Positions 1-62,920 are shown, numbered from the stretch's first letter. The stretch: DNA of 64,000 bases from Clostridia bacterium (GCA_017517685.1 JAFWYK010000010.1:130499-194498), one strand, 5' to 3'. Notes: generated by a model not told the origin, from the letters alone. Numbers and translations are program-made.

Positions 1-2
1 TT

Positions 3-1577
3 TGTTTTGATGACTTAGAAAGAGCAAATGTAGATGTTATTGATATTTTAGGTTATATTAATAACTTCGTTGAACATGATCATATCAAAACAATTATTAT
101 ATGTAATGAAAAAGAACTTGCTACAAAATTAAAAAGCTCTAATCTTGAAATGAAAACATTTATTGCAACATACCTTTTGGACAAAGAAGGAGATCTTTTA
201 AAATCAGATAAACCAATGGTAGAAAAAATTGGTGAAAAGATTGAACATGTTTTTGATAAAGCAAATGATTATGAAAGAATTAAAGAAAAATTAATTGGTG
301 AGACATTTGAATATGCACCACAATTTAGTTATATTATCAATGGTCTTTTGATGAGATATGAATCAAATCCAGATTTAATAAGATTTTTAAGAGAACATAC
401 AAACTTGATAACTAATACATTTATTAAATCAGGAACAAGAAATTTAAGAATTTTAAAACATGCATTAAATGACTTCAAAAAAATATTTGAAACAGTTAAT
501 AAGTTTTATCCAAATACAAATATTAGAGTATTACAAACGATGCTTATATTTACTATTGCTGTATCATTTGAGATTAAAGCAGGTAAGATAACAAAGGATA
601 AATTTATTAATATTAATTCAAATGAAGAATATAAAGCAATTTTAGTTTCTTCGAGAGTATTAAGTGATAATAGACAATTTTATATTAGAGAATTTGATAA
701 TAACTATTACTTTAATTTTAAAGCTGATTATAGATTCTTTAAATTTATTGAAATGTATGTAAGAACAAGAATATTTGATATGAAAGTATTTAAAACAGAT
801 ATGGAAATGATCATACAAACAATAGATACAGAGAAACTACCAGGATATAAAAGATTATTGACAGAAGAATACTGGAAAATATCAGATGATCAATTCCCAG
901 ATGTAATTGAAGAAGTATTAGAAAATGTAAAAAATGGTGATTTAAAATTAATAGAATTAGTTAAATTATTTGCATACTTTAGTTATTTTTCAAGAAGAAA
1001 ATTAATTGATTATGGAATGGTTGAGATTAAATCTATATTCATGGATGGGATGGAACTTGTTGCTAAGAAATCTGAATATTGTGATAATAAAGATGAAGAG
1101 TTATCAAGAATTGGTATAGATGTTGGGGAAGATATGAATGAAATTTTAAAATACTTCCATGCATTAAATAAAGAATTAAAAGCTCAAATGAATAAAAATA
1201 GAGCTGAAGAGTTATTTAAATGTATACCAATGAAGATGGAACAATTCTATGAAAAATTCTTAACAGAATATATGAATAAACCAATATTAAATTATTATGA
1301 TGTTAATTCAATGATGCAAAGAATTACTTGTGCAAGCAATGAAGATATAGTAAAAATAAAAGAAATGCTTTTAGATAGAGCAAAGAAAAATAGACATGCA
1401 CTAGAACCAGAGTTAAACTTTATTATTACATTAAAATCTGCTTTAGAGATATATTGTAAAGGTAGAGAAACAAGTATAAAGATTGTAATGCTTAAAGAGT
1501 TTGCAAGAGATTTAGGTACTGTTGTTGAAATATTAAAGAATTTACCTAAGAAAACAATTTATAAAAGAAAAATTTAA
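3..1577 (+). CDS. P-loop NTPase-like protein, 5' end outside the window (KAP/STAND-style Walker B segment plus long helical C-terminal region)
   Basis: The ORF track starts at 150, but the same frame is open back to nt 3 (CFDDLERANVDVIDILGYINNFVEHDHIKTIIICNEKEL...), so the gene enters from upstream. hhFDDLER is a Walker-B-type signature as in KAP-family NTPases. I recognise no motif in the remaining 470 aa. Confidence 0.4.
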   Translation, partial: CFDDLERANVDVIDILGYINNFVEHDHIKTIIICNEKELATKLKSSNLEMKTFIATYLLDKEGDLLKSDKPMVEKIGEKIEHVFDKANDYERIKEKLIGETFEYAPQFSYIINGLLMRYESNPDLIRFLREHTNLITNTFIKSGTRNLRILKHALNDFKKIFETVNKFYPNTNIRVLQTMLIFTIAVSFEIKAGKITKDKFININSNEEYKAILVSSRVLSDNRQFYIREFDNNYYFNFKADYRFFKFIEMYVRTRIFDMKVFKTDMEMIIQTIDTEKLPGYKRLLTEEYWKISDDQFPDVIEEVLENVKNGDLKLIELVKLFAYFSYFSRRKLIDYGMVEIKSIFMDGMELVAKKSEYCDNKDEELSRIGIDVGEDMNEILKYFHALNKELKAQMNKNRAEELFKCIPMKMEQFYEKFLTEYMNKPILNYYDVNSMMQRITCASNEDIVKIKEMLLDRAKKNRHALEPELNFIITLKSALEIYCKGRETSIKIVMLKEFARDLGTVVEILKNLPKKTIYKRKI

Positions 1578-4638: not shown

Positions 4639-4667
4639 AAAGAGCTAATTTAATTAGCTCTTTTTTG
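4639..4667 (+). terminator. Terminator of the Sel1 gene
   Basis: AAAGAGCTAAT/ATTAGCTCTTT hairpin followed by a T-run. Confidence 0.8.
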
Positions 4668-4695
4668 CGTGTGATACCATAAAATAAAGGAAATA

Positions 4696-4724
4696 TTGCA
4701 AAACTTTACATAATATGGTATAAT
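4696..4724 (+). promoter_or_regulatory. Sigma-A-type promoter of GC-rich cassette A
   Basis: TTGCAA, 17 nt, TATAAT, with TGG immediately upstream (extended -10). About 90-nt leader to ATG 4815. Confidence 0.65.
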
Positions 4725-4814
4725 AGTAACGTATGACAAAATTACACTGGCTGTGGAAATTGTCTGCAATAGTACATTGAAAAAACTTTTAATAACAGAA
4801 AGGATGATTGCCCA

Positions 4815-6650
4815 ATGATGAAAACGAAAACCCCTGGCAAGACAACAGCGACTCCTGAGAATGTTCTGATGATGAAGAACTATAAGCCTGGCTTCTTCAA
4901 GCCTGCTAGAACCATCATCGAATATGAGGGAATTACCCGTACGGATCGCGATGCGATAGTGAAGCTCTATGAAGCTTTGGTACCGAAAGATACGCAGCGC
5001 ACTATCAATCTTCGGATGATGGTTGAAGAAGCGTTCCCGAAATTTGAAGAGACTATTGGTGAGGCGAACTTCACTAAGGTTAAGAAGTATTTCGGTATCG
5101 GTGTCAAAAAGCCCAATAAGGGAGCACTTCGCGAAGGCGAGATCAATGCCATGATTGGCAAACTCAGAACCATTGAGAATGCTCAGTACTACATTACCGG
5201 CTTTGCAGAACTCATCGAGAAGATTGCAAATAAGCTTGGTGGTGCGCCTGAAGCAATGACCAGCCTTGAAAAGGCAAAGGTCGTACGTATGTTTATGGTG
5301 ATTTTCGCTGGTTATTTCTATTTCATTGAAGATTGTAATTACAGAAGAAATGGAGATACCATCGAGACCATCATCAACTATGCCAAGGTGCCGGATCTTA
5401 ACAGATTCCCGTTCCATCCTGAAGAACTCTTTGTGCTGTATGATTACAAGCTCAAGACCTACAGTGATAACGGAATCATTTACGACATCGTACAGATGGA
5501 AGTTATGGATCTGGACAAGAGAACCAGAAATGAACTGCTTACATTCGCAGAACTCAAGCTTGATCCTGAGAAGGAATTTGTTTCTGTGAATGAAACGGTA
5601 GCCTGCCAGACTTTTGGCAGCGTAAGAACCCTGAAGAGAAAAGTGCATCAGGAGCCTGGTGTATTCCCGATGGAGATCTTTACATGCAGAGACATGTTCG
5701 TCAAGATCGATTTTGACGATCTGTACGCTGTGTATAAAGCACTTAGATCTTTCCCACTCGAGAATTTCCCGACTGTGGACAGAGATGTTCCGGTATATGA
5801 GGGATCCAGATTGGTGCATAATAAGCACACATGCTATGAGATTATCAAAGGCATGGAAATCGCAGGACCGGCCGAAGCTAATCGTTTCGTAAGACTCATG
5901 GAGTATGCTATTACTGCCAATTACAATATTCCTGTTCGTCATGACAAGGATGGCAAGGAGCTTCCTATTGAGGAAGTTAAGTTCTATAATGCAAGGAATT
6001 ACCTGGCAGCCATTAAGTTTGCGAACGCAATGGGATATCTGGATGCATACACCGAGGTTGAAAGGGATTACGAAGTTGCAGAAATTCTTATTGAAAGAGA
6101 TGTGGATGATGGCTTGAAGCGCTATATTCACGGCGAGATCAATGAGATGCAGTTGAAGGAAATCCTGGAGATCGATGATCAGTTTGAAGAAGATGCCTTT
6201 GGTATCACTCATGAAGCTCCTCGAGCACCTATCGAAGAAATTGTACTTGCTTTTGCTATTGATAATGGCTATCTCGAGGAAAAGGCTGAGACCACGATGC
6301 AGCTGATTACTGAGGTGGTTTTGCCTGGTAATGAAGAGTTCTTTGAGCAGTATGAAAGCGGCGAAATCGACGCTCAGACCCTGGAAGGTAAGATTGGATT
6401 TGAAGATGAGTTTGCAGAGATGTATTTTGACGCCGAGAAGATTGACGTTACAGCTATCGAAAGTAAACTCCAGGATATGAAGCGTTCTATGGCCGACAAG
6501 AAAAAGATGCAGAAATCTGCATTGGCAATCTCTCTTTACTGTTATGTAGTTGAAGAGCAGATTCCGTGCGGAACGAAGAAGAAGGCTCCTAAGAGAAATA
6601 AGGGCCTGAAGCCTTCTAACTTGAAGGCACTTATCGCAAAATCTGCATAA
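4815..6650 (+). CDS. Hypothetical 611-aa protein, compositionally foreign (cassette A)
   Basis: Long ORF at about 43-47% GC in sampled lines, in a roughly 30% GC background. Codon usage is CTG/AAG/GAG/ATC-rich, with zero TTA/CTA/TCA codons. It has its own promoter, SD (GAAAGGA) and GC-rich terminator. I recognise no motif. Confidence 0.85.
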   Translation: MMKTKTPGKTTATPENVLMMKNYKPGFFKPARTIIEYEGITRTDRDAIVKLYEALVPKDTQRTINLRMMVEEAFPKFEETIGEANFTKVKKYFGIGVKKPNKGALREGEINAMIGKLRTIENAQYYITGFAELIEKIANKLGGAPEAMTSLEKAKVVRMFMVIFAGYFYFIEDCNYRRNGDTIETIINYAKVPDLNRFPFHPEELFVLYDYKLKTYSDNGIIYDIVQMEVMDLDKRTRNELLTFAELKLDPEKEFVSVNETVACQTFGSVRTLKRKVHQEPGVFPMEIFTCRDMFVKIDFDDLYAVYKALRSFPLENFPTVDRDVPVYEGSRLVHNKHTCYEIIKGMEIAGPAEANRFVRLMEYAITANYNIPVRHDKDGKELPIEEVKFYNARNYLAAIKFANAMGYLDAYTEVERDYEVAEILIERDVDDGLKRYIHGEINEMQLKEILEIDDQFEEDAFGITHEAPRAPIEEIVLAFAIDNGYLEEKAETTMQLITEVVLPGNEEFFEQYESGEIDAQTLEGKIGFEDEFAEMYFDAEKIDVTAIESKLQDMKRSMADKKKMQKSALAISLYCYVVEEQIPCGTKKKAPKRNKGLKPSNLKALIAKSA

Positions 6651-6670
6651 GACAAATCAAAACCACAGCA

Positions 6671-6709
6671 ACCGCCGTCTGGACAATTCCAGATGGCGGT
6701 TTTCTTTTT
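6671..6709 (+). terminator. Terminator of cassette A
   Basis: ACCGCCGTCTGG/CCAGATGGCGGT stem followed by TTTTCTTTTT. Confidence 0.85.
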
Positions 6710-6806
6710 GTTTTACATAATTTGTTTTGCTTAAATACTTGAAAAATATGCTATTTTATAATATAATTACAAATGTTATTTTAGAAGAAATTAAAGGAGA
6801 AGAATT

Positions 6807-8558
6807 ATGAAAGCTATAGAAATTAGAAACAAATACTTAAACTTTTTCAAAAATCATGGACATAGTGTGATTCCATCAGCGCCAGTAATTCCAGAAAACG
6901 ATCCATCTGTTTTATTTACAACAGCTGGAATGCAACCATTAGTACCATATCTTTTAGGACAAAAACACCCAGCTGGAACACGTTTAACAGATTTTCAAAA
7001 ATGTGTTAGAACTAATGATATAGATGAAGTTGGAGATAATAGACACTTAACATATTTTGAAATGTTAGGAAACTGGTCTTTAGGTGATTATTTTAAAGAA
7101 GAATCAATTGCAATGAGTTATGAATTCTTAACAAAAGAATTAGAAATTCCACAAGAAAAATTATCAGTAACATGTTTTGCTGGTGATGAAGATTGTAGTA
7201 GAGACGAAGTTGCGTATGCTGCATGGAGAAAAGCTGGTATACCAGATGAAAGAATTTATTTCTTTGGTAAAGATGATAACTGGTGGATAGCAGGAGAAGA
7301 AGGACCTTGTGGACCTGATACAGAAATGTTCTATGACACAGGAAAAGAAAAATGTTCTGAAGAATGTAATCCTTCTTGTGGTTGTGGAAAATATGTTGAG
7401 ATTTGGAATAACGTTTTTATGGAATTCTATAAAGATAAAAATGGATATTCTAAATTATCACAACAAAACGTTGATACAGGTTTAGGACTTGAAAGAATGG
7501 CTATGCTTTTACAAGGCAAAGAAACTCCTTTTGAAATAGAATTATTTGCTCCAGTAATGGAAAAATTAGTTGAGTTACAATCAAAAGATTTAATTCAAAG
7601 TAGAAGAATTGTTGCTGAACATTTACGTTCAAGCATGATGATTATCAATGATGGTGGAAGACCAAGTAATGTTGATAGAGGATATATTTTAAGAAGATTA
7701 TTAAGAAGAATGACAAGACATTTAAATAAATTAGAAATTAATTTAGATGAACTTGCTACAATTATTGATATTTCAATTGATAGTTTAAAAGAACTATATC
7801 CAGAATTAGATGCTAATAGAAATACAATTAAAGAAGTTATTATTGAAGAAAAAAATAAATTCATGAAAACACTTCAAAATGGTGAAAGAGAATTTGAAAA
7901 AGTTGCAAATAGAACAAAAAATGCAGGTAAAACAGTACTTGATACTCAAGCTGTATTTAATCTATATGAAACATATGGATTCCCACCAGAAATGACAGAA
8001 GAGTTAGCTCAAGAACAAGGATTAAAAGTTGATATGTCTGATTATCAAAGATTATTTGAAGAACATCAAGCAAAATCAAGACTTGGAAGTGAGCAAAAAT
8101 TTAAAGGTGGTCTTGCATCAAGTGGTGAAATGGAAACTAAATATCATACAGCAACACATCTTTTAAATGCAGCACTAAAAGTTGTATTAGGTGATCATGT
8201 TCACCAAAAAGGAAGTAATATTACTGCTGAGAGAATGAGATTTGATTTTTCTCATGGTGCAAAAATGACTGATGAAGAAAAACAAAAAGCAGAAGATTTA
8301 GTAAATGAATATATTGCTAAAGATATTCCAGTTGAAAAAATGGAAATGAAAAAAGAAGAAGCTATTAGTTTGGGAGCTGAAGCTATGTTCTTAGATAAAT
8401 ATGGTGACATAGTTACAGTTTATAAAATAGGTGATTTCTCAATAGAATTATGTGGTGGACCTCATGTTGAAAGAACAGGTGAATTAGGACACTTTAAAAT
8501 AAAAAAAGAGGAAGCATCATCATCAGGGGTAAGAAGAATTAAAGCAATACTTGAATAA
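6807..8558 (+). CDS. alaS: Alanine--tRNA ligase, short form lacking the C-Ala domain
   Basis: Class II AlaRS N-terminal core (FTTAGMQP, GNWSLGDYFK, WNNVFMEF). Editing-domain Zn motifs HTATHLL and CGGPHV. Only 583 aa, ending right after the editing domain. Confidence 0.85.
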   Translation: MKAIEIRNKYLNFFKNHGHSVIPSAPVIPENDPSVLFTTAGMQPLVPYLLGQKHPAGTRLTDFQKCVRTNDIDEVGDNRHLTYFEMLGNWSLGDYFKEESIAMSYEFLTKELEIPQEKLSVTCFAGDEDCSRDEVAYAAWRKAGIPDERIYFFGKDDNWWIAGEEGPCGPDTEMFYDTGKEKCSEECNPSCGCGKYVEIWNNVFMEFYKDKNGYSKLSQQNVDTGLGLERMAMLLQGKETPFEIELFAPVMEKLVELQSKDLIQSRRIVAEHLRSSMMIINDGGRPSNVDRGYILRRLLRRMTRHLNKLEINLDELATIIDISIDSLKELYPELDANRNTIKEVIIEEKNKFMKTLQNGEREFEKVANRTKNAGKTVLDTQAVFNLYETYGFPPEMTEELAQEQGLKVDMSDYQRLFEEHQAKSRLGSEQKFKGGLASSGEMETKYHTATHLLNAALKVVLGDHVHQKGSNITAERMRFDFSHGAKMTDEEKQKAEDLVNEYIAKDIPVEKMEMKKEEAISLGAEAMFLDKYGDIVTVYKIGDFSIELCGGPHVERTGELGHFKIKKEEASSSGVRRIKAILE

Positions 8559-8689
8559 AAATATAGGATAAGAAGTAATTTTTTGTTACTTCTTATTTTT
8601 TTTATTAATATTATGTAAAATTACTTGTAAATTATATGAATTATATGTAAAATATAAGTAGTATAATTGAAAAACACCGGTTTTTATGG

Positions 8690-8695
8690 TATAAT
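8690..8695 (+). promoter_or_regulatory. -10 box of the sortase gene promoter (TTGAAA 8667..8672, 17 nt, TATAAT)
   Basis: TTGAAA-17-TATAAT with TGG upstream of the -10. Confidence 0.55.
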
Positions 8696-8741
8696 ATAAT
8701 TAAGAAAATGTGTGAAAAATAAGGGATAGGAGAGAAAAATT

Positions 8742-9530
8742 ATGTCTAACAAATATGGTAATTTTTTAACAATGTTTTTAGTAGTTTTAATTGTTGCTAT
8801 TCTAGGTATTTTAGGATATTTTGTGTATGATATGATGCATTCTAAATCAGTAAATGCAAATGCGCAAACAGCTTTAGAACAATTTGAACAAGCAACTTCA
8901 GCAGTAAAGAAAGATAATGCAAGTTTATCGACATCTAAAGATGGAAAAGAAGAAACAAATACTGCTGCAACAAATACAACAAATACAGTTACAAATACAG
9001 CAACAAATGAAACAGGAAATACAGTTTCAAATACTGCAGCTTTAGATAAGTTAAATCAATTTGATAATTATTTAAATGCTACACAACCAGAAACAACAAC
9101 ACCAGATAATGGTGAAACAGAAAAAGTATATATGGAAGATTATGAAGTTTTAGGTAGAATTGAAATACCAAAAACAAAAGTTGATTATCCAATACTTGAA
9201 AATGTTACAAAAAGAAGTTTAGAGATTGCTGTAGGTAAAGCTTATGGACCTGGATTAAACTTACCAGGAAATACAACAATATTTGGACATAATTATAGAA
9301 ATGGACTATTCTTTTCAAATAATAAAAAATTATCAAATGGAGATAAAATTTATATAACAGATGCTCAAGGAAATAAAGTTACATATGTAATTTATAATAT
9401 TTATCAAACAACACCATCTGATGCATCATATATGCAAAGAGAAACAAATGGTAGAAGAGAGATATCATTACAAACATGTACAGATGATAGTTCAGCAAGA
9501 ATTATTATATGGGCAGCAGAGCAAGAATAA
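8742..9530 (+). CDS. Sortase-family transpeptidase, membrane anchored
   Basis: N-terminal TM segment, low-complexity T/N linker, catalytic His (TIFGHNY), Cys in SLQTC (TLxTC-type) and a downstream Arg. Confidence 0.85.
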   Translation: MSNKYGNFLTMFLVVLIVAILGILGYFVYDMMHSKSVNANAQTALEQFEQATSAVKKDNASLSTSKDGKEETNTAATNTTNTVTNTATNETGNTVSNTAALDKLNQFDNYLNATQPETTTPDNGETEKVYMEDYEVLGRIEIPKTKVDYPILENVTKRSLEIAVGKAYGPGLNLPGNTTIFGHNYRNGLFFSNNKKLSNGDKIYITDAQGNKVTYVIYNIYQTTPSDASYMQRETNGRREISLQTCTDDSSARIIIWAAEQE

Positions 9531-9602
9531 AAAAGTAGGACCTTCTAAAGAAGGTCCTTTTGTTATGCAAAAAAAGTGCTATTTTAAAATAGCACTTTTT
9601 AT

Positions 9603-10124
9603 TTAATCTCCAAATATTTTAATAATAATATTTTTAATAGTATTTAATACTTTTTTACATACGTCTAAAAATGATCCTTGAAGAACAGGTAAATTATCAT
9701 TATGAGTGTTACTATCATCACTAGATACATCTATTTTTGTGAATATATTATCTTGTTCTAGTTGTGAATTTAATTGGCTTTGAGTTCTTTTATCCATGAT
9801 AGCGTAATCCATAATCAATTCTTCTTTAGATTTTTTTCTAGATGACCAATAATTTGAATGAAGAAGTGAAAGAAGAGCTAATGTTTTATCATTTAATTTT
9901 TCTTCACCTATAGATTTTGTCATTGTAAATTCGTAATCTAAAGAACAATTATCATAAAAGAACATGATAAGTTTTTTAGGAATTTTGTCTACATATAATT
10001 TATCCATATGTCTTAAAACTTCTAATACTTCACTATATACTTGACGTTGTTCTAATGATATAACCATGTTTTTCTCCTTATTAATTATTTCCTCGGCAAT
10101 TCTGTCCTTTTTTCTTTTGAACAT
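9603..10124 (-). CDS. Hypothetical protein
   Basis: ORF 9603..10139. Start preferred at the second ATG (10124), which is behind GAGG. Shares a bidirectional terminator region (9530-9600) with the sortase gene. Confidence 0.6.
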   Translation of the reverse strand: MFKRKKDRIAEEIINKEKNMVISLEQRQVYSEVLEVLRHMDKLYVDKIPKKLIMFFYDNCSLDYEFTMTKSIGEEKLNDKTLALLSLLHSNYWSSRKKSKEELIMDYAIMDKRTQSQLNSQLEQDNIFTKIDVSSDDSNTHNDNLPVLQGSFLDVCKKVLNTIKNIIIKIFGD

Positions 10125-10153
10125 TTTTATCAACCTCATTTGTGCATAAAAAA

Positions 10154-10549
10154 TTATAAATCTAAATCTTGACCATCTATTTCTTCAGTTTCTTTTGTTG
10201 GTGTTTCTCCAACATTCATATCTTCAAGTTTAAGTGTAGTCGAAGATGTTTTTTCATCTTTTCCTTTAAGACGATTTTTTAATTCTTCAATTCTTTCGTT
10301 AATTACTTGAGAACCATCAACCATTAAAGTTGTTTGTTCATTAACGTTAGCTTCATATGTTGTTGGATCAACAGCATGAGCAGCTTGTTCAACTTGATCA
10401 GCAGATGTGTTTTCAGAAACTGCTTTTGTTCTATTTTTTTGATTCATTACAACATTAAGAAAATCACTTCCTGATTTTGCATTTAATGCTTTTTTTAAAT
10501 CTTCATCTGATAATTTATCTAAATTTTTTTCTCCATCAACAACTGGCAT
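10154..10549 (-). CDS. Hypothetical acidic protein
   Basis: 131-aa ORF with SD AAGGAG, directly upstream of 9603..10124 in the same orientation. Confidence 0.6.
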   Translation of the reverse strand: MPVVDGEKNLDKLSDEDLKKALNAKSGSDFLNVVMNQKNRTKAVSENTSADQVEQAAHAVDPTTYEANVNEQTTLMVDGSQVINERIEELKNRLKGKDEKTSSTTLKLEDMNVGETPTKETEEIDGQDLDL

Positions 10550-10636
10550 AGGTATAATTCTCCTTATAAATACTTATATATAGAAATTATAGCATTAATA
10601 AAAAATTGCTTCAATAATTGTAATCAAAATGAGAAA

Positions 10637-10669
10637 TAAAAAAAGAGATTAATCTTTCGATTAATCTCT
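10637..10669 (-). terminator. Terminator of the tRNA-His/tRNA-Gln operon
   Basis: AGAGATTAATC/GATTAATCTCT stem followed by a T-run on the minus strand. Confidence 0.8.
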
Positions 10670-10671
10670 TT

Positions 10672-10747
10672 TGGCTGGGCTGGATAGATTCGAACTATCG
10701 AAATGCCAGAGTCAAAGTCTGGTGCCTTACCGCTTGGCTACAGCCCA
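10672..10747 (-). tRNA. tRNA-Gln (anticodon UUG)
   Basis: The reverse complement folds as a cloverleaf. Acceptor TGGGCTG/CAGCCCA, anticodon stem CCAGA/TCTGG with loop CTTTGAC, GTTCGAATC T-loop, encoded CCA. Confidence 0.9.
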
Positions 10748-10753
10748 ATGTAA

Positions 10754-10831
10754 TGGGGTGGAAGATGGGACTCGAACCCACGGTCTTCAGTGCCACAAAC
10801 TGACGCGTTAACCAACTACGCTACATCCACC
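10754..10831 (-). tRNA. tRNA-His (anticodon GUG) with encoded G-1
   Basis: The reverse complement GGTGGATGTAGCGTAGTTGGTTAACGCGTCAGTTTGTGGCACTGA... has anticodon stem TCAGT/ACTGA with loop TTGTGGC, an extra 5' G pairing with C73, and encoded CCA. There is one T-T mismatch in the acceptor stem. Confidence 0.85.
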
Positions 10832-10861
10832 ATGTTGTGTCGATTCTCACAACGCTCTTAT

Positions 10862-10890
10862 ATTTTAAAACAAAAATAATCTTTTGTCAA
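10862..10890 (-). promoter_or_regulatory. Promoter of the tRNA-His/Gln operon
   Basis: Minus strand TTGACA, 17 nt, TAAAAT. Confidence 0.6.
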
Positions 10891-10924
10891 TCTATTTTAT
10901 TAAAAAAGTTAAATAATTTATTAA

Positions 10925-10952
10925 AATAATAAAAAAGGGAGGAGCACTCCCG
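10925..10952 (-). terminator. Terminator of cassette B
   Basis: GGGAG/CTCCC GC-rich hairpin followed on the minus strand by TTTTTTATTATTTT. Confidence 0.7.
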
Positions 10953-11001
10953 ATTTTGAGTTAGCCCCAAAAGAGAGTGCCCCAGAGTTCAAGAATGACG
11001 G

Positions 11002-11547
11002 TTAATTCTGGTTAATCAAGCCAATGTAGAATCTCATGAACTTAACGATGCTGACACCACCGACACAAGCTTTGACAGTTTCATAGTATTTCCAGGTCTG
11101 GAACTCATTGTAGAGGTCAGCAGGATTTACCAGAATTTTGTGCTCATGGTCAAGGATGCCGATAAGGGTATCGATGTTCAGAAAACCTACAGACTCTTTC
11201 GCAGCAAGGCTCTGTGCAAGCCGCACAACGTTCGGAGTGTCGATGGAATCGAACTCGAAGCCGTAGCAGAATGCGTTTGCCTTATCTTTGCGGGTAGGTG
11301 CGTCCTTCAACTCATCTAAATAAGCGTTGTACTCCTTGATCTGTTTTGCCATTGCTGCTGAAAGCTTTTCAGATTTGGTGGCGGTCAGGTTAGGAGCGTA
11401 AACGGTAGATTCGTTGTATGCCTTGATGATAGCGCGCTGAAGACTGTCGTCGAGAGTGGAAAATTCGATGGTCTTAGGCAGCTTTTCACCAGGGATTTTA
11501 AGGACAAGCTTGTCATCCAGAATTGCATAAGTTGTTTGTTTTTTCAT
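11002..11547 (-). CDS. Hypothetical 181-aa protein, compositionally foreign (cassette B)
   Basis: About 45-57% GC in sampled lines. SD AAAGGAG 8 nt before the ATG. Own promoter and terminator. I recognise no motif. Confidence 0.8.
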   Translation of the reverse strand: MKKQTTYAILDDKLVLKIPGEKLPKTIEFSTLDDSLQRAIIKAYNESTVYAPNLTATKSEKLSAAMAKQIKEYNAYLDELKDAPTRKDKANAFCYGFEFDSIDTPNVVRLAQSLAAKESVGFLNIDTLIGILDHEHKILVNPADLYNEFQTWKYYETVKACVGGVSIVKFMRFYIGLINQN

Positions 11548-11678
11548 AAAGTGATCTCCTTTGCATTGGTATTCTTGAATATATAATCATTACCGGACAC
11601 ATTCATTAGAATGCATTGTCCTAGTAAAAAGATTATCAATATTTTCAATGTGCATTATTTACATAAAATCTACTAAAT

Positions 11679-11707
11679 ATTATAACATGTTTTTGTAATA
11701 AAGTCAA
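11679..11707 (-). promoter_or_regulatory. Sigma-A-type promoter of cassette B
   Basis: Minus strand TTGACT, 17 nt, TATAAT. The roughly 130-nt leader contains a GGACA..CATTC/GAATG..TGTCC hairpin (11601-11632). Confidence 0.6.
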
Positions 11708-11898
11708 AAACATACAAAACAAGCCAATATTTTACAGGAAATAGAAAAAATAAATGGGGAACATAAATAAAAGTTAGCAAAAAAGTTTATGAATTTTTAA
11801 TAAAAATCATGTACAAAATGATTGAGTATTGTTATACTTAATATATTGTGAAAAATGTTGAAAAATGTTTTTTAATAAAAGTGATATTGGTGACAAAT

Positions 11899-13005
11899 AT
11901 GAATATACTATTAGAGAAAGTAAAGAGTAGTATTATTAATAATTGGCAACGAAAACTTATAATTTTTTCAATATGTTTTGCTGTTATTTTTATGATATTA
12001 CTAATAAATTTTATTATAGAATATAAAAGAAATAATATAGATACTATGTATGCAATACATGGTGTTGTTATGACTGATGGTGCTGAATATTATAAAAAAC
12101 CAAAAGAATCAAGATGGTTTTTTAATAGAATATCAAAATTAAAAATAGGTACAGATTCTTATATTGTAGGTTCTGAAACAACAGAAGATGGAAAACAATG
12201 GTATAAGATAAAATCTGGTAAAAAAGTAGGATATATATTAAAAGAAAATATTGATTATTATGAAATAGATTTAGAGTCAGAATATGCTTTAATGGCAGAT
12301 GTTTCGAAATTTAATGTTATTCAAAAAGATTTTGAAACTAAAGAAGAATTTCAAGTATTTTTATTAAAACATAATTTTAATTATGCTTATATAAGAGCTG
12401 GAGGTAGAGGTTATGGAAAAGATGGTAACTTCTATATAGATCCAAATTTTAAAATGTTTGTTGAAGCTTGTGAATATTTGGGAATACCTTATGGTTTTTA
12501 TTATATAGATGAAGCGTTAAATTCTGAAGAAGTAGATGAAGAAGTTGAATTTATGTATGATTTTATCTGCAAAAATTCGACAAGTAAAAATATACTTCCA
12601 TTAGTAATTGATATTGAAAAATATGATGACAATATTAATTCTAGAACGAAAGATATTTGGGAAGATAGAAAATATTTAGCAACTGAATTGGTAGACAAGT
12701 TTTTAGCCAAAGGTATTTCTTCGATAATATATACAAATGCTAATATGGCAAATGAATATTTATCAGAAGTTAATACATGTTTTTGGCTTGCGTATTATGA
12801 TCGTGAAAACAGAATACCAAAACAATGGTATACAAGTTTAGAGGATCAAGAAGCAACTAAAAATGAAGAATTAATGAATAAAATGATAGCTTGGCAATTT
12901 ACAGAGTCAGGTGCAGGTAAAGAAATTGATTATAAAGTTGATGTTAATTTAGTAAAAAATGATTTCTTTATCGAATATGTAAAAAAATATACGAAAGATA
13001 AGTAA
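11899..13005 (+). CDS. GH25-family muramidase with N-terminal TM anchor and SH3b-like domain
   Basis: The ADVSKFN..., AYIRAGGRGYG...D..F and GIPYGFYY pattern is typical of GH25 lysozymes. An SH3-like segment (KIGTDSYIVG..WYKIKSGKKVGYI) precedes it. Start placed at ATG 11899. Confidence 0.7.
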   Translation: MNILLEKVKSSIINNWQRKLIIFSICFAVIFMILLINFIIEYKRNNIDTMYAIHGVVMTDGAEYYKKPKESRWFFNRISKLKIGTDSYIVGSETTEDGKQWYKIKSGKKVGYILKENIDYYEIDLESEYALMADVSKFNVIQKDFETKEEFQVFLLKHNFNYAYIRAGGRGYGKDGNFYIDPNFKMFVEACEYLGIPYGFYYIDEALNSEEVDEEVEFMYDFICKNSTSKNILPLVIDIEKYDDNINSRTKDIWEDRKYLATELVDKFLAKGISSIIYTNANMANEYLSEVNTCFWLAYYDRENRIPKQWYTSLEDQEATKNEELMNKMIAWQFTESGAGKEIDYKVDVNLVKNDFFIEYVKKYTKDK

Positions 13006-13024
13006 TGTAAAATACGGAGGAAAA

Positions 13025-14236
13025 ATGAAATTAAATAGAATATTTATCAAAGTGCTAGCAATTATATTATGCTTAGCGCAAGGACTTTTATTGGGCAATT
13101 TTATGCCTAAAGTAAAGGCTAGTCAAGGAGATTTGGTAAATAATACGAAAGATAAAAAGATTGATGTTTATTCTGAAGCAGCAATTTTAATTGAACAAGA
13201 AACAGGTAAAATATTATATAAAAAGAATATAGATAATAAGATGTATCCTGCTAGTACAACTAAAATATTAACAGCTATAATAGCAATAGAGAATTGTGAT
13301 ATGTTTGAAAAAGTTGTGGCTAGTAAAGAAGCAATAAGAAGTGTGAAAACTGGATATAGTAATGCAGCGATACAAGTAGGAGAAAGTTTTACTGTAGAAG
13401 AACTTTTAAAAGTATTGATGGTTCATTCAGCAAATGAAGCTGGTAATATATTAGCTGAACATATATCAGGTTCAGTAGAAGAGTTTGCAAAATTAATGAA
13501 TGTGAAAGCAAAACAAATTGGATGTAAAAATTCTAATTTTGTTAATCCGCATGGAGTGCATGATGAAAACCATTATACAACAGCATATGATTTAGCTTTA
13601 ATTGGAAGATATGCAATGCAAAATGAAAAGTTTAGAGAAATTGTATCATGTATGGAATGTAGTCTTCCAAATACAGAACTATGGACAGAAGAACATTCTG
13701 ATAGATATGGAGAAAGAAATTTTTATAACACAAATGACTTAATGCTTCAAAATAGCAAATATTATTATCCATATGTAAATGGAATTAAATCTGGATATAC
13801 AACTCCTGCTAAAAACTGTTTGGTTACAGGAAGTAATAGATATGGCTTTGAATTAATTGCAGTTGTACTTCATGCCGAAACAACAAGTAGCGGTGAGAGT
13901 GCAAGAAATATAGATACGATAAATCTTTTAGAATATGGTTATAATAATTTTAATAAAGAGGATATTTTAGAAGAATATGAATATGAAAAAGAAATGGAAA
14001 AAGGTTTTATTACAGGAATAGTAGAAAATTCAAATGATGATATCGATAAAACTGGAACATCTGGAAATAAAGAAAGTGTTTTTGTAGCTTTAAAGAAAGT
14101 AATAAAACTTGGAACTGTTTTTAGCTTAATTTCATTAGTAGGAATATATATTTATAGAAAGAGAAAAGAACATAGGGAATATGTATACAATGAATATTCA
14201 ATTGATTTATATCATTTCGAATTGGATACAAATTAA
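13025..14236 (+). CDS. Serine-type D-Ala-D-Ala carboxypeptidase (PBP5/S11 family)
   Basis: Signal peptide, SxxK (ASTTK), SxN (HSANE), KxG (IKSG) and a C-terminal membrane anchor. Confidence 0.85.
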   Translation: MKLNRIFIKVLAIILCLAQGLLLGNFMPKVKASQGDLVNNTKDKKIDVYSEAAILIEQETGKILYKKNIDNKMYPASTTKILTAIIAIENCDMFEKVVASKEAIRSVKTGYSNAAIQVGESFTVEELLKVLMVHSANEAGNILAEHISGSVEEFAKLMNVKAKQIGCKNSNFVNPHGVHDENHYTTAYDLALIGRYAMQNEKFREIVSCMECSLPNTELWTEEHSDRYGERNFYNTNDLMLQNSKYYYPYVNGIKSGYTTPAKNCLVTGSNRYGFELIAVVLHAETTSSGESARNIDTINLLEYGYNNFNKEDILEEYEYEKEMEKGFITGIVENSNDDIDKTGTSGNKESVFVALKKVIKLGTVFSLISLVGIYIYRKRKEHREYVYNEYSIDLYHFELDTN

Positions 14237-16564: not shown

Positions 16565-16673
16565 TGTGAATAATATATGTCGAAAAAAGATGAATAAATA
16601 GGTTATTCACAAACTTATCCACATTATCCACAATATAAAAAGTGGATAAATTTTGATTAAAAAATGTGGAAAA
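16565..16673. promoter_or_regulatory. DnaA-box cluster
   Basis: TTATCCACA at 16615..16623 and 16624..16632 (abutting). TTATTCACA at 16603..16611, and reversed at 16565..16573. TTATCCACT reversed at 16641..16649. TTTTCCACA reversed at 16665..16673. Confidence 0.7.
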
Positions 16674-16772
16674 ACTTAACATAACGTAAATAAAGATAAA
16701 ATTCAAAAATGTATTGAAGTATTTAAAAAAGTGTGATATTAATGTATTTATAAGGAATTCGGAGGTTTGAAT

Positions 16773-17390
16773 ATGAAATATTATATTGATTTTGATAATA
16801 CATTATATGAAACAGCGAAGTTAACTACATGTATGCTTGATGCTATTTGTAAAACTGTTGTGGAAAAATTAGGTAAAGAATATAGTGAAATAGATGAATA
16901 TGTAAAAGCAAATTTTAATTCTACTACAGATAATATTTTTACATTTGCTAGAGAAACAGGAAGTTATTACGGAATAGATCCGGATTTAGTAGAAAACAAT
17001 GTTAAAGCTGTAGTAGATAATGGAAATAATATTGTATTTGAGGATGCAGAAAGATTTTTAGCTAGATTAAAAGAAAATGGACATGAAGTTCATATATTAA
17101 CATATATACCAAAAACAAATCAAGAATATCAAATGAAAAAATTATTAGGTTCTGGATTAATGAAATATTTTGATACAATTACAATTACATCAAAATATAA
17201 GTTTTTACTTGATATGGATTATACACAAGGTATATATATAGATGATGATCCAAGAGATTTAAATGGATTATATGAAAAAAATCCAATTAAAGTAATTAGA
17301 ATAAGAAAACCAAATAATAAACGTTCTAAAATTGATATTGATAACAAAAATATTGAAGAATACGTATCGTTTGATGATATTGAAGTGTAA
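16773..17390 (+). CDS. HAD-superfamily hydrolase
   Basis: N-terminal DxDxT motif (YYIDFDNTLY). Start placed at ATG 16773 behind GGAGG. Confidence 0.7.
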   Translation: MKYYIDFDNTLYETAKLTTCMLDAICKTVVEKLGKEYSEIDEYVKANFNSTTDNIFTFARETGSYYGIDPDLVENNVKAVVDNGNNIVFEDAERFLARLKENGHEVHILTYIPKTNQEYQMKKLLGSGLMKYFDTITITSKYKFLLDMDYTQGIYIDDDPRDLNGLYEKNPIKVIRIRKPNNKRSKIDIDNKNIEEYVSFDDIEV

Positions 17391-33855: not shown

Positions 33856-34389
33856 ATGAGATATAAAGAATTAGACATCGATAGAATGAAAAAGAATGTA
33901 AGACCTCCGCATATTAGTACCGGTAAGGAAGAAGAAGCGTGGAGGCATTATGACATTGCAAATTGCTATTCGTATGCACTTGGTGTGTTTGAAGATATTG
34001 ATTATTTAAGACCAGGTGAAATTGCGAACATGGAATATAAACCAGAATATTCCGACGAAGAGATTTTAGAAAGAGTAATGCGCGATTTGGAAGTGTTGGG
34101 ACTTGAGACCACACAATCTTCTTTGGAAGAGGTAATTGAAGATGAGTACTCTTGGAAAATTGCTATTATGAATGTAGAAACAGGAGAAGCTCATATTTTT
34201 TATGATTATCATTTCTTAAAGCAAGGAAAAAATCAAAAGTGGTATCATAAACAACCTTATGACCAATTTCCGTCCAGATTCGATTCGCGAAATAAAGAGA
34301 TAGAAAATCCTGAAACAGCAACGTATTCGTTTCACTATCATTTAGTTGGATACTTAGTTGTTCGTCAAGTTCAAACTGCGAGAGCCTAA
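33856..34389 (+). CDS. Hypothetical protein, possible Cys/His papain-fold hydrolase; mildly GC-elevated (cassette F)
   Basis: About 38% GC, with CG dinucleotides that are rare in the host. NCYSYALG (candidate nucleophile Cys) and DYHFLKQGKNQKWYHKQ (candidate His) are spaced as in small cysteine peptidase/amidase folds. Terminator at 34381..34405. Confidence 0.6.
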   Translation: MRYKELDIDRMKKNVRPPHISTGKEEEAWRHYDIANCYSYALGVFEDIDYLRPGEIANMEYKPEYSDEEILERVMRDLEVLGLETTQSSLEEVIEDEYSWKIAIMNVETGEAHIFYDYHFLKQGKNQKWYHKQPYDQFPSRFDSRNKEIENPETATYSFHYHLVGYLVVRQVQTARA

Positions 34390-38985: not shown

Positions 38986-39600
38986 TCAGAAAGCGGAATG
39001 GCTTTTGATTTTCTTGCGGTTTTGCTTTTCGAGAGTGCGTCTTGCTTCGAGCTCTGCAAAGAACTTTTCGGTTTTTGTGCGATCGCTCGCTGTGGTGATA
39101 GAACGTTTCCGAACATCTTCGAACACCTTGTCAGAGATGATGAGTTCAACACAAGCAAGATACAACACGTAGTCAAGGGGAGTCGTCTTATGGAAAGAAA
39201 ATACACGAGCGATTTCTGCTTTTGTTTGTTCAGGATGATTAGCAAAATATCTTGCGATATGAGCAATATCCTGTTTGGTAAATGCAGATAAGTGTTTTCT
39301 CTTTTCTATAAGCAAGTCATACTTGAGTTGACTCTTGTGACCGTTGTTGCCATGTGCTTTTTGGTTGACCTTGATTTTATCAAGGATCTTCTCTGCAGTT
39401 TCAATGCTCACCAAATGATGGGTGATTGCCATTGCGAGTAAGGTGTAGTAGGTACTTTCGGTAACGTTATATTTCTCAGTGAGAGAAGAGCGAGCATAAG
39501 TCGCGGACGACTTTGCATAGTCTACAGCAATAGCCCGTGCGAGTTTGTAAACTCCGGCTACAGTATTGCACCGACGAATGTCAAGAATTGTTCTTGCCAT
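38986..39600 (-). CDS. Hypothetical 204-aa protein, compositionally foreign, possibly DNA-binding (cassette C)
   Basis: About 45% GC. Start placed at ATG 39600 behind GGAGGTG. Two HTH-like stretches (EKYNVTESTYYTLL and TKAEIARVFSFHKTTPLDYV). Basic C-terminal tail. Confidence 0.75.
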   Translation of the reverse strand: MARTILDIRRCNTVAGVYKLARAIAVDYAKSSATYARSSLTEKYNVTESTYYTLLAMAITHHLVSIETAEKILDKIKVNQKAHGNNGHKSQLKYDLLIEKRKHLSAFTKQDIAHIARYFANHPEQTKAEIARVFSFHKTTPLDYVLYLACVELIISDKVFEDVRKRSITTASDRTKTEKFFAELEARRTLEKQNRKKIKSHSAF

Positions 39601-39649
39601 AGTAACACCTCCAATTGTAATAGTGTGTGAATTAATAAACTGCATATTA

Positions 39650-40269: not shown

Positions 40270-40632
40270 TTAAATTTGTTTTTTGGGTTCAATGCAGTAT
40301 CTTGCAAAAGGTTCTTGTTCCTCAAGTTTGTCATATTCTGCATTGTAATTAAATTCAACAACCTTGAAATCTTCTTCGAAAGACCGAAGAAGTTCAACAG
40401 CGTTTTCAAAAGAAAAATTGTTGGTTACGACGATACTCAAAATATTATCAGACTGGATGAACTGGCAGGTATCGGAAGTAATATAAAATTTAGATAAGAT
40501 GTCTTCAATATCTATAAATGTTTTTTTCCATTCTCTTTTCCGTTTCGCCATAGTTTCATCATGATCTTTTTGCAGTTTATAGATTACATCATTGCCTAAC
40601 AGGGCAATTACAATTTCTTTCACAGGTGTCAT
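40270..40632 (-). CDS. Hypothetical 120-aa protein (cassette D, mildly atypical composition)
   Basis: SD AGGAGGG. 30-37% GC in sampled lines, with local CG-rich patches. Own promoter. I recognise no motif. Confidence 0.65.
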   Translation of the reverse strand: MTPVKEIVIALLGNDVIYKLQKDHDETMAKRKREWKKTFIDIEDILSKFYITSDTCQFIQSDNILSIVVTNNFSFENAVELLRSFEEDFKVVEFNYNAEYDKLEEQEPFARYCIEPKKQI

Positions 40633-62383: not shown

Positions 62384-62920
62384 TTAGAGGATAAAGAAAA
62401 ATTCTTTGGGGCAGGGTAATGACTTTCGTTCGGCGTACTTTTCGAGAATAACGTTGAGTTCTTCGCAAGTTACGTCATCTGAAATCCAGGCAAGAACAGG
62501 ATTGTTCTTCTTGACTTTGCTTTTTGCGGGATTGTCGCTGTTGATGTGTTTGTCGGCAATCACGAGGGCATAGCGTCCATAGTTGATGATGGTTGCAATG
62601 TTGCGGATGATATCATCCTTTACCAGCTGATCATATTTTTCATAAAAAGCAGCTTGTGTAGGCATACATTTATCATCACCGATATAGGACAAGGCCCATG
62701 CGATTTTTGCACCCCGTGTGGTAGGTAGTTCAGCGCGGCTTAAAAGAGGCGGCTTTTTCTGGCCTTGAGGCACGATGTAAAAAGCTTGGCCTAACTTGGC
62801 AGGCTGAGACAGTACCATTTCGCCACAGAGTTTAGTTTGTAGGAACCGTCCGTCGAATTTGCATTCGATGAACTCATTGATTGAGAAGTCTTGCGGCGTT
62901 TTCGTGATGAAAATCAGCAA
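62384..62920 (-). CDS. Hypothetical 178-aa protein, compositionally foreign (cassette E)
   Basis: 43-50% GC in sampled lines. TTG start 8 nt after GGGAAAGG, with an in-frame TAG six codons upstream. I recognise no motif. Confidence 0.7.
   Translation of the reverse strand: MLIFITKTPQDFSINEFIECKFDGRFLQTKLCGEMVLSQPAKLGQAFYIVPQGQKKPPLLSRAELPTTRGAKIAWALSYIGDDKCMPTQAAFYEKYDQLVKDDIIRNIATIINYGRYALVIADKHINSDNPAKSKVKKNNPVLAWISDDVTCEELNVILEKYAERKSLPCPKEFFFIL

Follow-up and report, generated by a model that had tools for sequence, protein, structure and literature searches.

Compositionally atypical islands gained by horizontal transfer have been reported by Lawrence and Ochman to drift towards the composition of their host. 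Phage morons are independent transcription units inserted between genes (PMC3594210). The bldA/TTA system of Streptomyces relies on a rare codon that is decoded by a single tRNA under developmental regulation (PMC2000904). The virulence genes of Salmonella draw on rare tRNAs and wobble decoding and are better translated under starvation; it has been proposed that their codon signature spares them competition with bulk translation and sustains translation in starvation (bioRxiv 10.64898/2026.02.22.707322). Here we analyze a gene of 611 codons that shares traits with each of these systems and coincides with none of them. It lies in a stretch of 64,000 nucleotides (nt) from a Clostridia bacterium (GCA_017517685.1, JAFWYK010000010.1:130499-194498), which is referred to below as the window. 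The gene is a native, self-contained unit that encodes a member of an undescribed protein family, and its non-host codon usage is conserved and specific to the coding sequence (CDS); we hold this description with high confidence.

The window has a G+C content (GC) of about 27% (intergenic GC 0.24) and carries genes typical of a spore-forming Clostridium: pyrBI, spoVT, a Sel1-repeat gene, alaS, a sortase gene, nrdD, carB, rpsB and tsf. The segment 4696-6711 is a self-contained single-gene transcription unit (Table 1). The first-pass annotation of this DNA had listed an extended -10 promoter, a leader of roughly 90 nt and a strong GC-rich terminator, and all three were located by consensus scan or in the sequence, the leader measuring about 84 nt. 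The predicted free energy of the terminator is -25.3 kcal/mol, and equivalent strong terminators (-18 to -26 kcal/mol) lie 3' of the family gene in about 18 of 21 loci.

The same annotation had reported a completely non-host codon usage, a lack of TTA, CTA and TCA codons and a dominance of TTA among the leucine codons of neighbouring genes, and counting bore out each of these points. The GC of the gene is 0.436, and its GC at third codon positions (GC3) is 0.485, against 0.07-0.14 in the neighbours (host about 0.11). GC at the first, second and third positions is.51,.31 and.485 in the target gene versus.42,.30 and.11 in the host; the GC excess is almost wholly synonymous. TTA, CTA, TCA and CAA do not occur at all in the 611 codons, whereas TTA makes up 173 of 246 leucine codons in nine neighbouring genes. 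From the codon-position base composition of the gene itself, 13.6 TTA, CTA and TCA codons are expected together (Poisson probability of zero about 1e-6), and their absence therefore exceeds an effect of composition. The avoidance extends to all codons with a pyrimidine in the first position and A in the third (YNA codons): TTA, TCA, CTA, CCA, CAA and CGA account for 2 of the 611 codons, while codons with a purine in the first position and A in the third (RNA codons) account for 113.

The preference is the reverse of that seen in highly expressed host genes. The shares of TTA, TCA, AAA, CAA, CCA and ACA are 77, 62, 100, 100, 73 and 92% in rpsB and tsf, and 0, 0, 24, 0, 4 and 17% in the target. 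Translational optimisation for high expression was ruled out on this ground, as the target shuns the codons that rpsB and tsf favour. Of the target codons, 9% belong to ten codon types that are each rarer than 1 per 1000 in 50 host open reading frames (ORFs), and the relative synonymous codon usage (RSCU) of the target has a correlation of 0.20 with that of host genes. The ratio of CAG to CAA is 9:366 in the 50 host ORFs and 13:0 in the target. In these host ORFs CAG represents 2.4% of the glutamine codons, and AAG and GAG each represent about 10% of the lysine and glutamate codons, respectively, a pattern which suggests that CAG specifically is poorly decoded in the host organism. At fourfold degenerate sites A has a frequency of 0.20 in the target versus 0.55 in the host with T unchanged, that is, A is depleted on the sense strand, and the longest A/T run is 7 nt in the target versus 15 nt in alaS. 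No 3-mer or 4-mer is depleted in the target beyond the expectation from codon usage; avoidance of RNase or restriction motifs was dropped from consideration, as no short motif is depleted beyond codon usage or avoided across frames.

The encoded protein had been taken for an orphan, which proved wrong. A search of 5.8 billion proteins identified 100 full-length homologues of about 600 amino acids (aa), one at 99% identity, groups at 76% and 66% and a cloud at 34-47%. A profile search of 1.84 billion cluster representatives yielded 96 proteins, some of which are relatives of 480-570 aa that align only with the N-terminal two thirds and constitute a second subfamily. This census, which comprises more than 100 homologues, rests on metagenome assemblies. 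In the databases searched, the family was seen only in very low-GC (25-31%) spore-forming gut Clostridia, namely 'Candidatus Scatovivens' and its relatives, and no member carries a name in the sources searched. Neither the single protein nor the family profile had a match in Pfam, NCBIfam, PHROGs, PADLOC or the PDB sequences, in line with the earlier remark that no catalytic motif is visible, and Pfam had no match for ten distant relatives. Weak VbhA/SHOCT-like Pfam matches occur in some members; this identity was dropped, the matches merely reflecting a repeated 'GEIxxxxL' helical hairpin. A literature search found nothing on the 611-aa family or on the gene content of Scatovivens.

An AlphaFold2 model built with 50 sequences has a predicted local distance difference test score (pLDDT) of 86.5 and a predicted template modelling (TM) score of 0.72, and only residues 1-29 are disordered in it. 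The Foldseek comparison of a predicted structure that had been proposed as a remote-homology check gave no match at E <= 0.001 in PDB or BFVD, all TM scores being below 0.15. The rows for large serine recombinases, MqsA and Cas9 were discarded at this TM score; large serine recombinases provided several of the weak top rows (best rows E 0.43-4.2), but the protein has no significant match to resolvase, recombinase or zinc-ribbon domains in structure, nor in sequence by Pfam. The family with its second subfamily is thus new, without detectable sequence or structural relatives.

Four parts can be distinguished in the protein (Table 1). The alpha/beta core bears most of the invariant residues (an LRTxENAQYY motif, K155, R158, D173, P202-E203, E246, R271, K274, E354 and R357), nine of the invariant residues being charged, and distant relatives align with this core only. 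The basic N- and C-terminal tails and the acidic helical region preceding the latter, as described in the first-pass annotation, are evident from the charge counts and the secondary structure of the model: the N-terminal 30 residues have charges of +6/-1, residues 451-540 include 4 basic and 35 acidic residues, and residues 541-611 include 17 basic and 7 acidic ones. In the C-terminal tail K588, P592, K593, N595, K596, L598, K599 and L603 are kept in at least 90% of the members. No signal peptide or membrane segment was predicted in the 611-aa protein, which is probably cytoplasmic. The invariant charged cluster, together with the conserved basic tail at the C terminus, suggests that the protein binds a ligand that is phosphorylated or a nucleic acid. 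A nucleic-acid-binding, maybe autoregulatory, role would be a reasonable guess given the charged cluster, the basic tails and a promoter that is better conserved than the protein.

We compared the locus in related genomes, which are metagenome-assembled genomes named 'Candidatus Scatovivens' or uncultured Clostridia, together with independent ENA and Logan assemblies (homologous loci are referred to by L numbers). All related genomes retrieved have the gene downstream of pyrBI-spoVT, with the Sel1-repeat gene on one side and a 583-aa alaS on the other. Neighbour-joining trees, which are simple distance trees, of the target and of alanyl-tRNA synthetase (AlaRS) contain the same four clades; their deep nodes are not resolved. 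Among the related genomes AlaRS is 88-98% identical and the target 37-76%. In three comparisons the nucleotide identity of the target versus its flanks is 98.8 vs 99.5%, 92.8 vs 97.9% and 83.5 vs 96-98%; at every depth the target diverges two to four times as much as its flanks. The target is not hypervariable, however: in the comparison of the window with L001 it has a rate of non-synonymous substitutions (dN) of 0.163, similar to the 0.136 of the neighbouring sortase gene, and a ratio of non-synonymous to synonymous rates (dN/dS) of 0.11. The gene is fast-evolving yet under purifying selection. No integrase, mobility genes, terminal repeats or target duplication were found at the gene borders, where only short chance-level repeats are present and the neighbours are housekeeping genes, and no homologues were found in viral contigs, phage genomes or plasmids. 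The synteny, the AlaRS-congruent tree and the family-wide persistence show that the gene is native: within the genus it has been vertically inherited at one locus and is not foreign. In distant lineages the unit occurs in other contexts (L010, L020, L023 and L024), and in the second subfamily it lies inside the dcw (cell-division and cell-wall) gene cluster in L039 and just after spoIVA in L040.

The GC excess persists at all of these positions. In the loci first examined, gene GC (0.28-0.45) exceeds flank GC (0.25-0.31) in 19 of 19 cases. In the four unrelated contexts named above, gene GC3 is 0.39-0.50 versus 0.07-0.2 in the flanks, and in the second subfamily it is 0.33 (L039) and 0.39 (L040) versus 0.07-0.15. 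Genomes, phages and plasmids of matching GC yielded no family member. We also applied a two-state decay model calibrated on the synonymous turnover between strong (G+C) and weak (A+T) bases in alaS. For the window allele to stand at 0.49 under neutral decay, the required ancestral GC3 exceeds 1.0 in six within-genus comparisons (one more is saturated), and under this simple model a single ancient import followed by neutral drift therefore appears untenable. GC-rich codon usage belongs to the conserved traits of the family and does not look like the trace of a decaying import.

We propose that selection on synonymous codons, and not import, holds this composition. The target would use a second codon 'dialect' that depends on tRNAs or wobble pairings for which the bulk of the host genes have little use. 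Its translation could then be insulated from, or gated apart from, the main pool of tRNAs for A/T-ending codons, for example in starvation or sporulation. This proposal follows the idea of selective charging and the work on stress-adapted codon usage in Salmonella (bioRxiv 10.64898/2026.02.22.707322). We assign the whole explanation, a native self-contained gene of a new family with a selected codon dialect, a probability of slightly under one half. The mechanism by itself, with insulation or gating of translation as the most likely purpose, is a tentative proposal. Several points weigh against it. The tRNAs seen in the window and in the other loci are only tRNA-Gln(UUG), tRNA-His(GUG), tRNA-Leu(UAA) and tRNA-Trp(CCA). 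Keeping about 600 synonymous sites far from mutational equilibrium needs strong and pervasive selection, which is unusual for such a gene. The force is not uniform, as orthologue GC3 ranges from 0.18 to 0.53 and L015 has nearly relaxed to host composition. The two-state decay model is crude, the alaS sites are themselves under codon selection, and intergenic GC (0.24) is higher than host GC3. Parsimony-polarised third-position changes from G/C to A/T and from A/T to G/C are balanced in the target; these counts are biased, the flanks showing an excess of A/T-to-G/C changes, and were given little weight, so that the argument rests on the alaS-calibrated decay and the deep persistence of the GC excess. 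Autoregulation and ligand binding, finally, are purely inferential.

Among the alternatives, those that invoke movement between genomes come closest to the first-pass annotation, in which the gene was the largest of several foreign cassettes. Recent or repeated import from a donor of about 45% GC, followed by too little time to drift to host composition, would fit the strikingly non-host composition and codon usage, the self-contained unit with its own promoter and terminator and the different contexts in distant lineages; other GC-rich cassettes do come and go nearby, with extra ones in L003, L016 and L022 and a 181-aa cassette missing from L003 and L007. However, presence in the relatives is not patchy, the gene occupying the same locus with an AlaRS-congruent tree, purifying selection and family-wide GC richness; all homologues with readable flanks lie in DNA of 25-31% GC and none in phage, plasmid or viral sets, which leaves the proposed donor without a candidate; and the lack of an integrase, terminal repeats or target duplication, the family-wide conservation of the promoter and a neutral decay incompatible with the depth of divergence point the same way. 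Within the genus the import reading is largely refuted, and we consider it very improbable. A selfish or once-mobile, 'moron-like' cassette, whose composition would reflect its own history across hosts and no benefit to the host, would account for a promoter-to-terminator module kept as a block upstream of alaS, inside the dcw cluster and after spoIVA, and its anatomy equals that of phage morons (PMC3594210). Such a history across hosts cannot supply GC richness, though, when the known hosts are all low-GC, and an apparently single-copy gene that is stably syntenic and under purifying selection over genus-level divergence, with no mobility machinery or phage context, makes this account quite unlikely as well, although a relocation of the unit in the distant past is conceivable.

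The remaining alternatives accept a native gene and explain its composition by other means. A local mutational or repair bias could lift both GC and substitution rate without codon selection, be it GC-biased gene conversion at a hotspot or targeted hypermutation of the kind of retroelement adenine mutagenesis, and the divergence of two to four times that of the flanks and the sense-strand-specific depletion of A with unchanged T would agree with it. It is hard to reconcile with a GC step that sits at the start of the CDS and not at the transcription start or over a diffuse region, with an excess concentrated at third positions and with its travelling with the gene to unrelated chromosomal positions. 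The leader is A-rich with a GC of 0.29, which also disfavours any transcript-wide mutational process. When 4696-6709 was compared with the window by self-BLAST, no further copy exceeding 25 nt turned up (no search was made for a reverse transcriptase gene), and mutagenesis of the diversity-generating retroelement type was rejected, as the window lacks a template copy of the gene. We regard a mutational origin as unlikely. Selection might instead act on the mRNA and not on its decoding, a GC-rich CDS, a 5' hairpin and a strong 3' hairpin making the transcript stable or abundant in the face of AU-preferring RNases. The conserved terminators, the low frequency of A at fourfold sites, the short A/T runs and the 5' hairpin of several leaders, which has a compensatory variant (ATGACA/TGTCAT in relatives versus ATGGCA/TGCCAT in L039), speak for it; but the rise in GC does not begin before the CDS, no particular motif is shunned across frames, and the possible 5'-proximal hairpin, with pairing above that of shuffled sequences, is lacking or imperfect in many loci, the window among them. 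Avoidance of YNA codons with retention of RNA codons fits decoding better than bulk RNA composition, and selection on the mRNA is in our opinion a doubtful, though not a negligible, candidate. That the gene is dual-coding, with a real second protein in the antisense frame, was considered because the codon-aligned antisense frame, as the first-pass annotation had stated, has no stop in the gene; it stays open over 668 codons, from the antisense stop at 4650 to the one at 6657, and contains the 520-aa ORF that the annotation had called spurious and attributed to the missing TTA, CTA and TCA codons. Locus L006, the GC-richest allele and 45% identical, likewise has zero antisense stops, and many alleles have fewer TTA, CTA and TCA codons than expected. 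The 17 other loci have 2-32 antisense stops, however, and most changes between close alleles hit the third positions of sense codons, which correspond to first positions in the antisense frame (14, 14 and 68 polarised L001/L025 changes at positions 1, 2 and 3); for both reasons the ORF is spurious. Antisense stops do not explain why YNA codons are avoided, because CCA, CAA and CGA, whose complements are not stops, are equally shunned, and neither a promoter nor a ribosome-binding site is evident for the ORF. The ORF is a by-product of the lack of YNA codons, as had been supposed, and a second protein is next to inconceivable.

The gene also has a conserved control region. Essentially every locus has the 30-nt promoter cTTGAAAAAGTTaACATAAtgTGaTATAAT ahead of the gene, and the ACATAA in its spacer is invariant. 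An 18-nt pattern taken from this promoter, TTGMAAARNTTNACATAA, has exactly one match in 34 of 41 loci, L039 among them, and in each case the match lies immediately before the family gene. The promoter is kept in deep relatives and in the second subfamily, the proteins of which are about 24% identical, and it is better conserved than the protein. The full motif occurs nowhere else in the window; its use as a regulon marker was abandoned, as it occurs at the family gene only. The only near-match (one mismatch) to the upstream half of the promoter lies at 16667-16684 (+), upstream of a HAD-hydrolase gene (16767-17390), has no matching -10 and is probably due to chance. The leaders share the blocks ATGAC, TGTGG/GTAGT and GTACATTGAAAA. 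The leader had no match in Rfam, and RNAalifold on a MAFFT alignment gave no consensus structure. An exact 10-mer, ACATTGAAAA, has just two occurrences in the window, one in the leader of the target and one in that of the 181-aa cassette, and is kept in orthologous leaders. The promoter spacer and the leader blocks, which exceed the protein in conservation and include small palindromes, probably bind a dedicated regulator, possibly the 611-aa protein itself.

Table 1. Positions of the target gene, its parts and other features in the window
Feature	Position	Strand	Remarks
Sigma-A-type promoter	4696..4724	+	consensus scan; near-consensus
-35 element TTGCAA	4696-4701	+	followed by a 17-nt spacer
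Family-invariant ACATAA in promoter spacer	4708-4713	+	
TG-extended -10 element TGgTATAAT	4716-4724	+	
5' leader, about 84 nt	4731..4814	+	transcription start inferred
Leader block ATGACA	4733-4738	+	comparison of leaders
Leader block TGTGG	4752-4756	+	comparison of leaders
Leader block TTGTC	4760-4764	+	comparison of leaders
Leader block GTACATTGAAAA	4772-4783	+	comparison of leaders
Ribosome-binding site AAGGA	4800-4804	+	strong
CDS of the target gene	4815..6650	+	611 codons and TAA; member of an undescribed protein family
Basic N-terminal tail, codons 1-29	4815..4901	+	pLDDT < 50; predicted disordered
Conserved alpha/beta core, codons 30-410	4902..6044	+	alignment and secondary structure of the model
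Acidic all-helical region, codons 411-560	6045..6494	+	repeated 'GEI(N/D)xxxL' helical hairpins; direct repeat D3
C-terminal element, codons 574-611	6534..6647	+	LYCY...CG cysteine pair, basic tail, terminal amphipathic helix
Intrinsic terminator	6670..6711	+	14-bp stem with 8 G-C pairs and 4-nt loop (6670-6701), then T run
Spurious 520-aa antisense ORF	4650..6212	-	inside the 668-codon open frame
KAP-family NTPase gene	1-1577	+	cut by the window start
alaS	6807-8558	+	583 aa
181-aa cassette	11002-11547	-	GC3 0.53; own TTGACT...TGtTATAAT promoter
Leader of the 181-aa cassette	11548-11700	-	
Further GC-rich ORF	33856-34389	+	GC3 of the four further ORFs 0.28-0.50; no Pfam match
Further GC-rich ORF	38986-39645	-	as above
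Further GC-rich ORF	40270-40632	-	as above
Further GC-rich ORF	62384-62920	-	as above

The target is not the only GC-rich gene in the window. The 181-aa cassette and the ORFs at 38986-39645 and 62384-62920, all unnamed, have an RSCU correlation of 0.55-0.60 with the target and of about 0 to 0.25 with the host. Codons nearly absent from housekeeping genes are thus concentrated in a small set of genes, which is one trait of a rare-codon regulon. These three small cassettes have no phage match. The 181-aa cassette is orthologous and GC-rich in L001, L011 and L012 and absent from L003 and L007; none of its 29 homologues is named, and its model (pLDDT 79.8) has no fold match in the PDB by Foldseek. 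It adjoins tRNA-His and tRNA-Gln. Lineage-specific GC-rich small ORFs were observed between the Sel1 gene and the target in L003 (9149-9715) and L016 (5105-5662), between the target and alaS in L022 (7876-8304 and 8486-9118) and elsewhere in the target neighbourhood in L001 (3628-4278); the intergenic spaces near the target seem to collect GC-rich cassettes. It is conceivable, though speculative, that the cassettes (the 611-aa gene as the largest and those of 181, 219 and 178 aa) form a regulon written in the second dialect, insulated or independently gated from bulk translation in a mirror image of bldA/TTA, with ACATTGAAAA and the conserved promoter and leader elements as the matching transcriptional control.

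Some neighbours of the target deserve mention. The gene lies directly upstream of an unusually short alaS, as had been noticed before. The product of this alaS comprises the catalytic and tRNA-recognition part and the tRNA_SAD segment, with nothing past residue 583; full-length AlaRS has about 870 aa, with a C-terminal (C-Ala) domain beyond that point. Since alaS has the same length in all relatives at 88-98% identity, its shortness is a lineage trait and not a truncation. The 156-nt spacer before alaS has no space for a T-box leader. The KAP-family NTPase gene at the start of the window matches the PADLOC candidate defence family PDC-S49 (E 1e-41) and phrog_4740 and is kept upstream of pyrBI in relatives. 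In L008 a segment with a Mob_Pre relaxase, a sigma-70 family gene and helix-turn-helix genes (7907-13391) lies just downstream of the syntenic block; this insert resembles a mobile element and is missing from the sister loci L007 and L009.

Composition-based methods for the detection of horizontal gene transfer would call the target transferred, whereas synteny, phylogeny and family-wide persistence show it to be native. A family of about 600 residues with a confidently predicted structure that resembles neither a solved structure nor an entry of the viral structure set is added to the proteins of a poorly studied group of small-genome gut Clostridia, to which it is confined. A GC3 of about 0.5 in a genome with about 0.1 constitutes an extreme natural test of whether bacteria keep separate dialects that partition tRNA use between growth and stress or development. 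The promoter conserved across proteins of about 24% identity offers a handle for finding the regulator and the remaining regulon.

In summary, the locus resembles each of the systems introduced above in part. Like a phage moron, the target is a single ORF between its own sigma-70-type promoter and an intrinsic terminator, with a composition unlike that of its neighbours, and the unit has apparently been placed between unrelated genes in different lineages. Unlike a moron, it lies outside any prophage, surrounded by pyrBI, spoVT, the Sel1 gene, alaS and the sortase gene, has no phage or viral homologue, has been vertically inherited over the whole depth of the genus and has a promoter whose sequence is itself conserved family-wide. 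As in transferred islands, atypical GC and codon usage are confined to a discrete segment, but the target is not patchy and shows no tree conflict, mobility genes or identifiable donor, nor, under the simple decay model, a decay fitting neutral drift. As with the virulence genes of Salmonella, a distinct gene set departs in its codon signature from the ribosomal genes; in Salmonella this set is AT-rich and horizontally acquired, its members have known functions and show the effect in experiments, while here the bias is reversed and far more extreme (GC3 0.49 vs 0.11), the genes are vertically inherited and they are known from sequence alone. As in the bldA/TTA system, codons nearly unused by housekeeping genes are concentrated in a few special genes of a spore-former; here, however, these are GC-ending codons in an AT-rich genome, the bias extends over all 611 codons instead of one or a few gating codons, and a dedicated tRNA is only conjectural.

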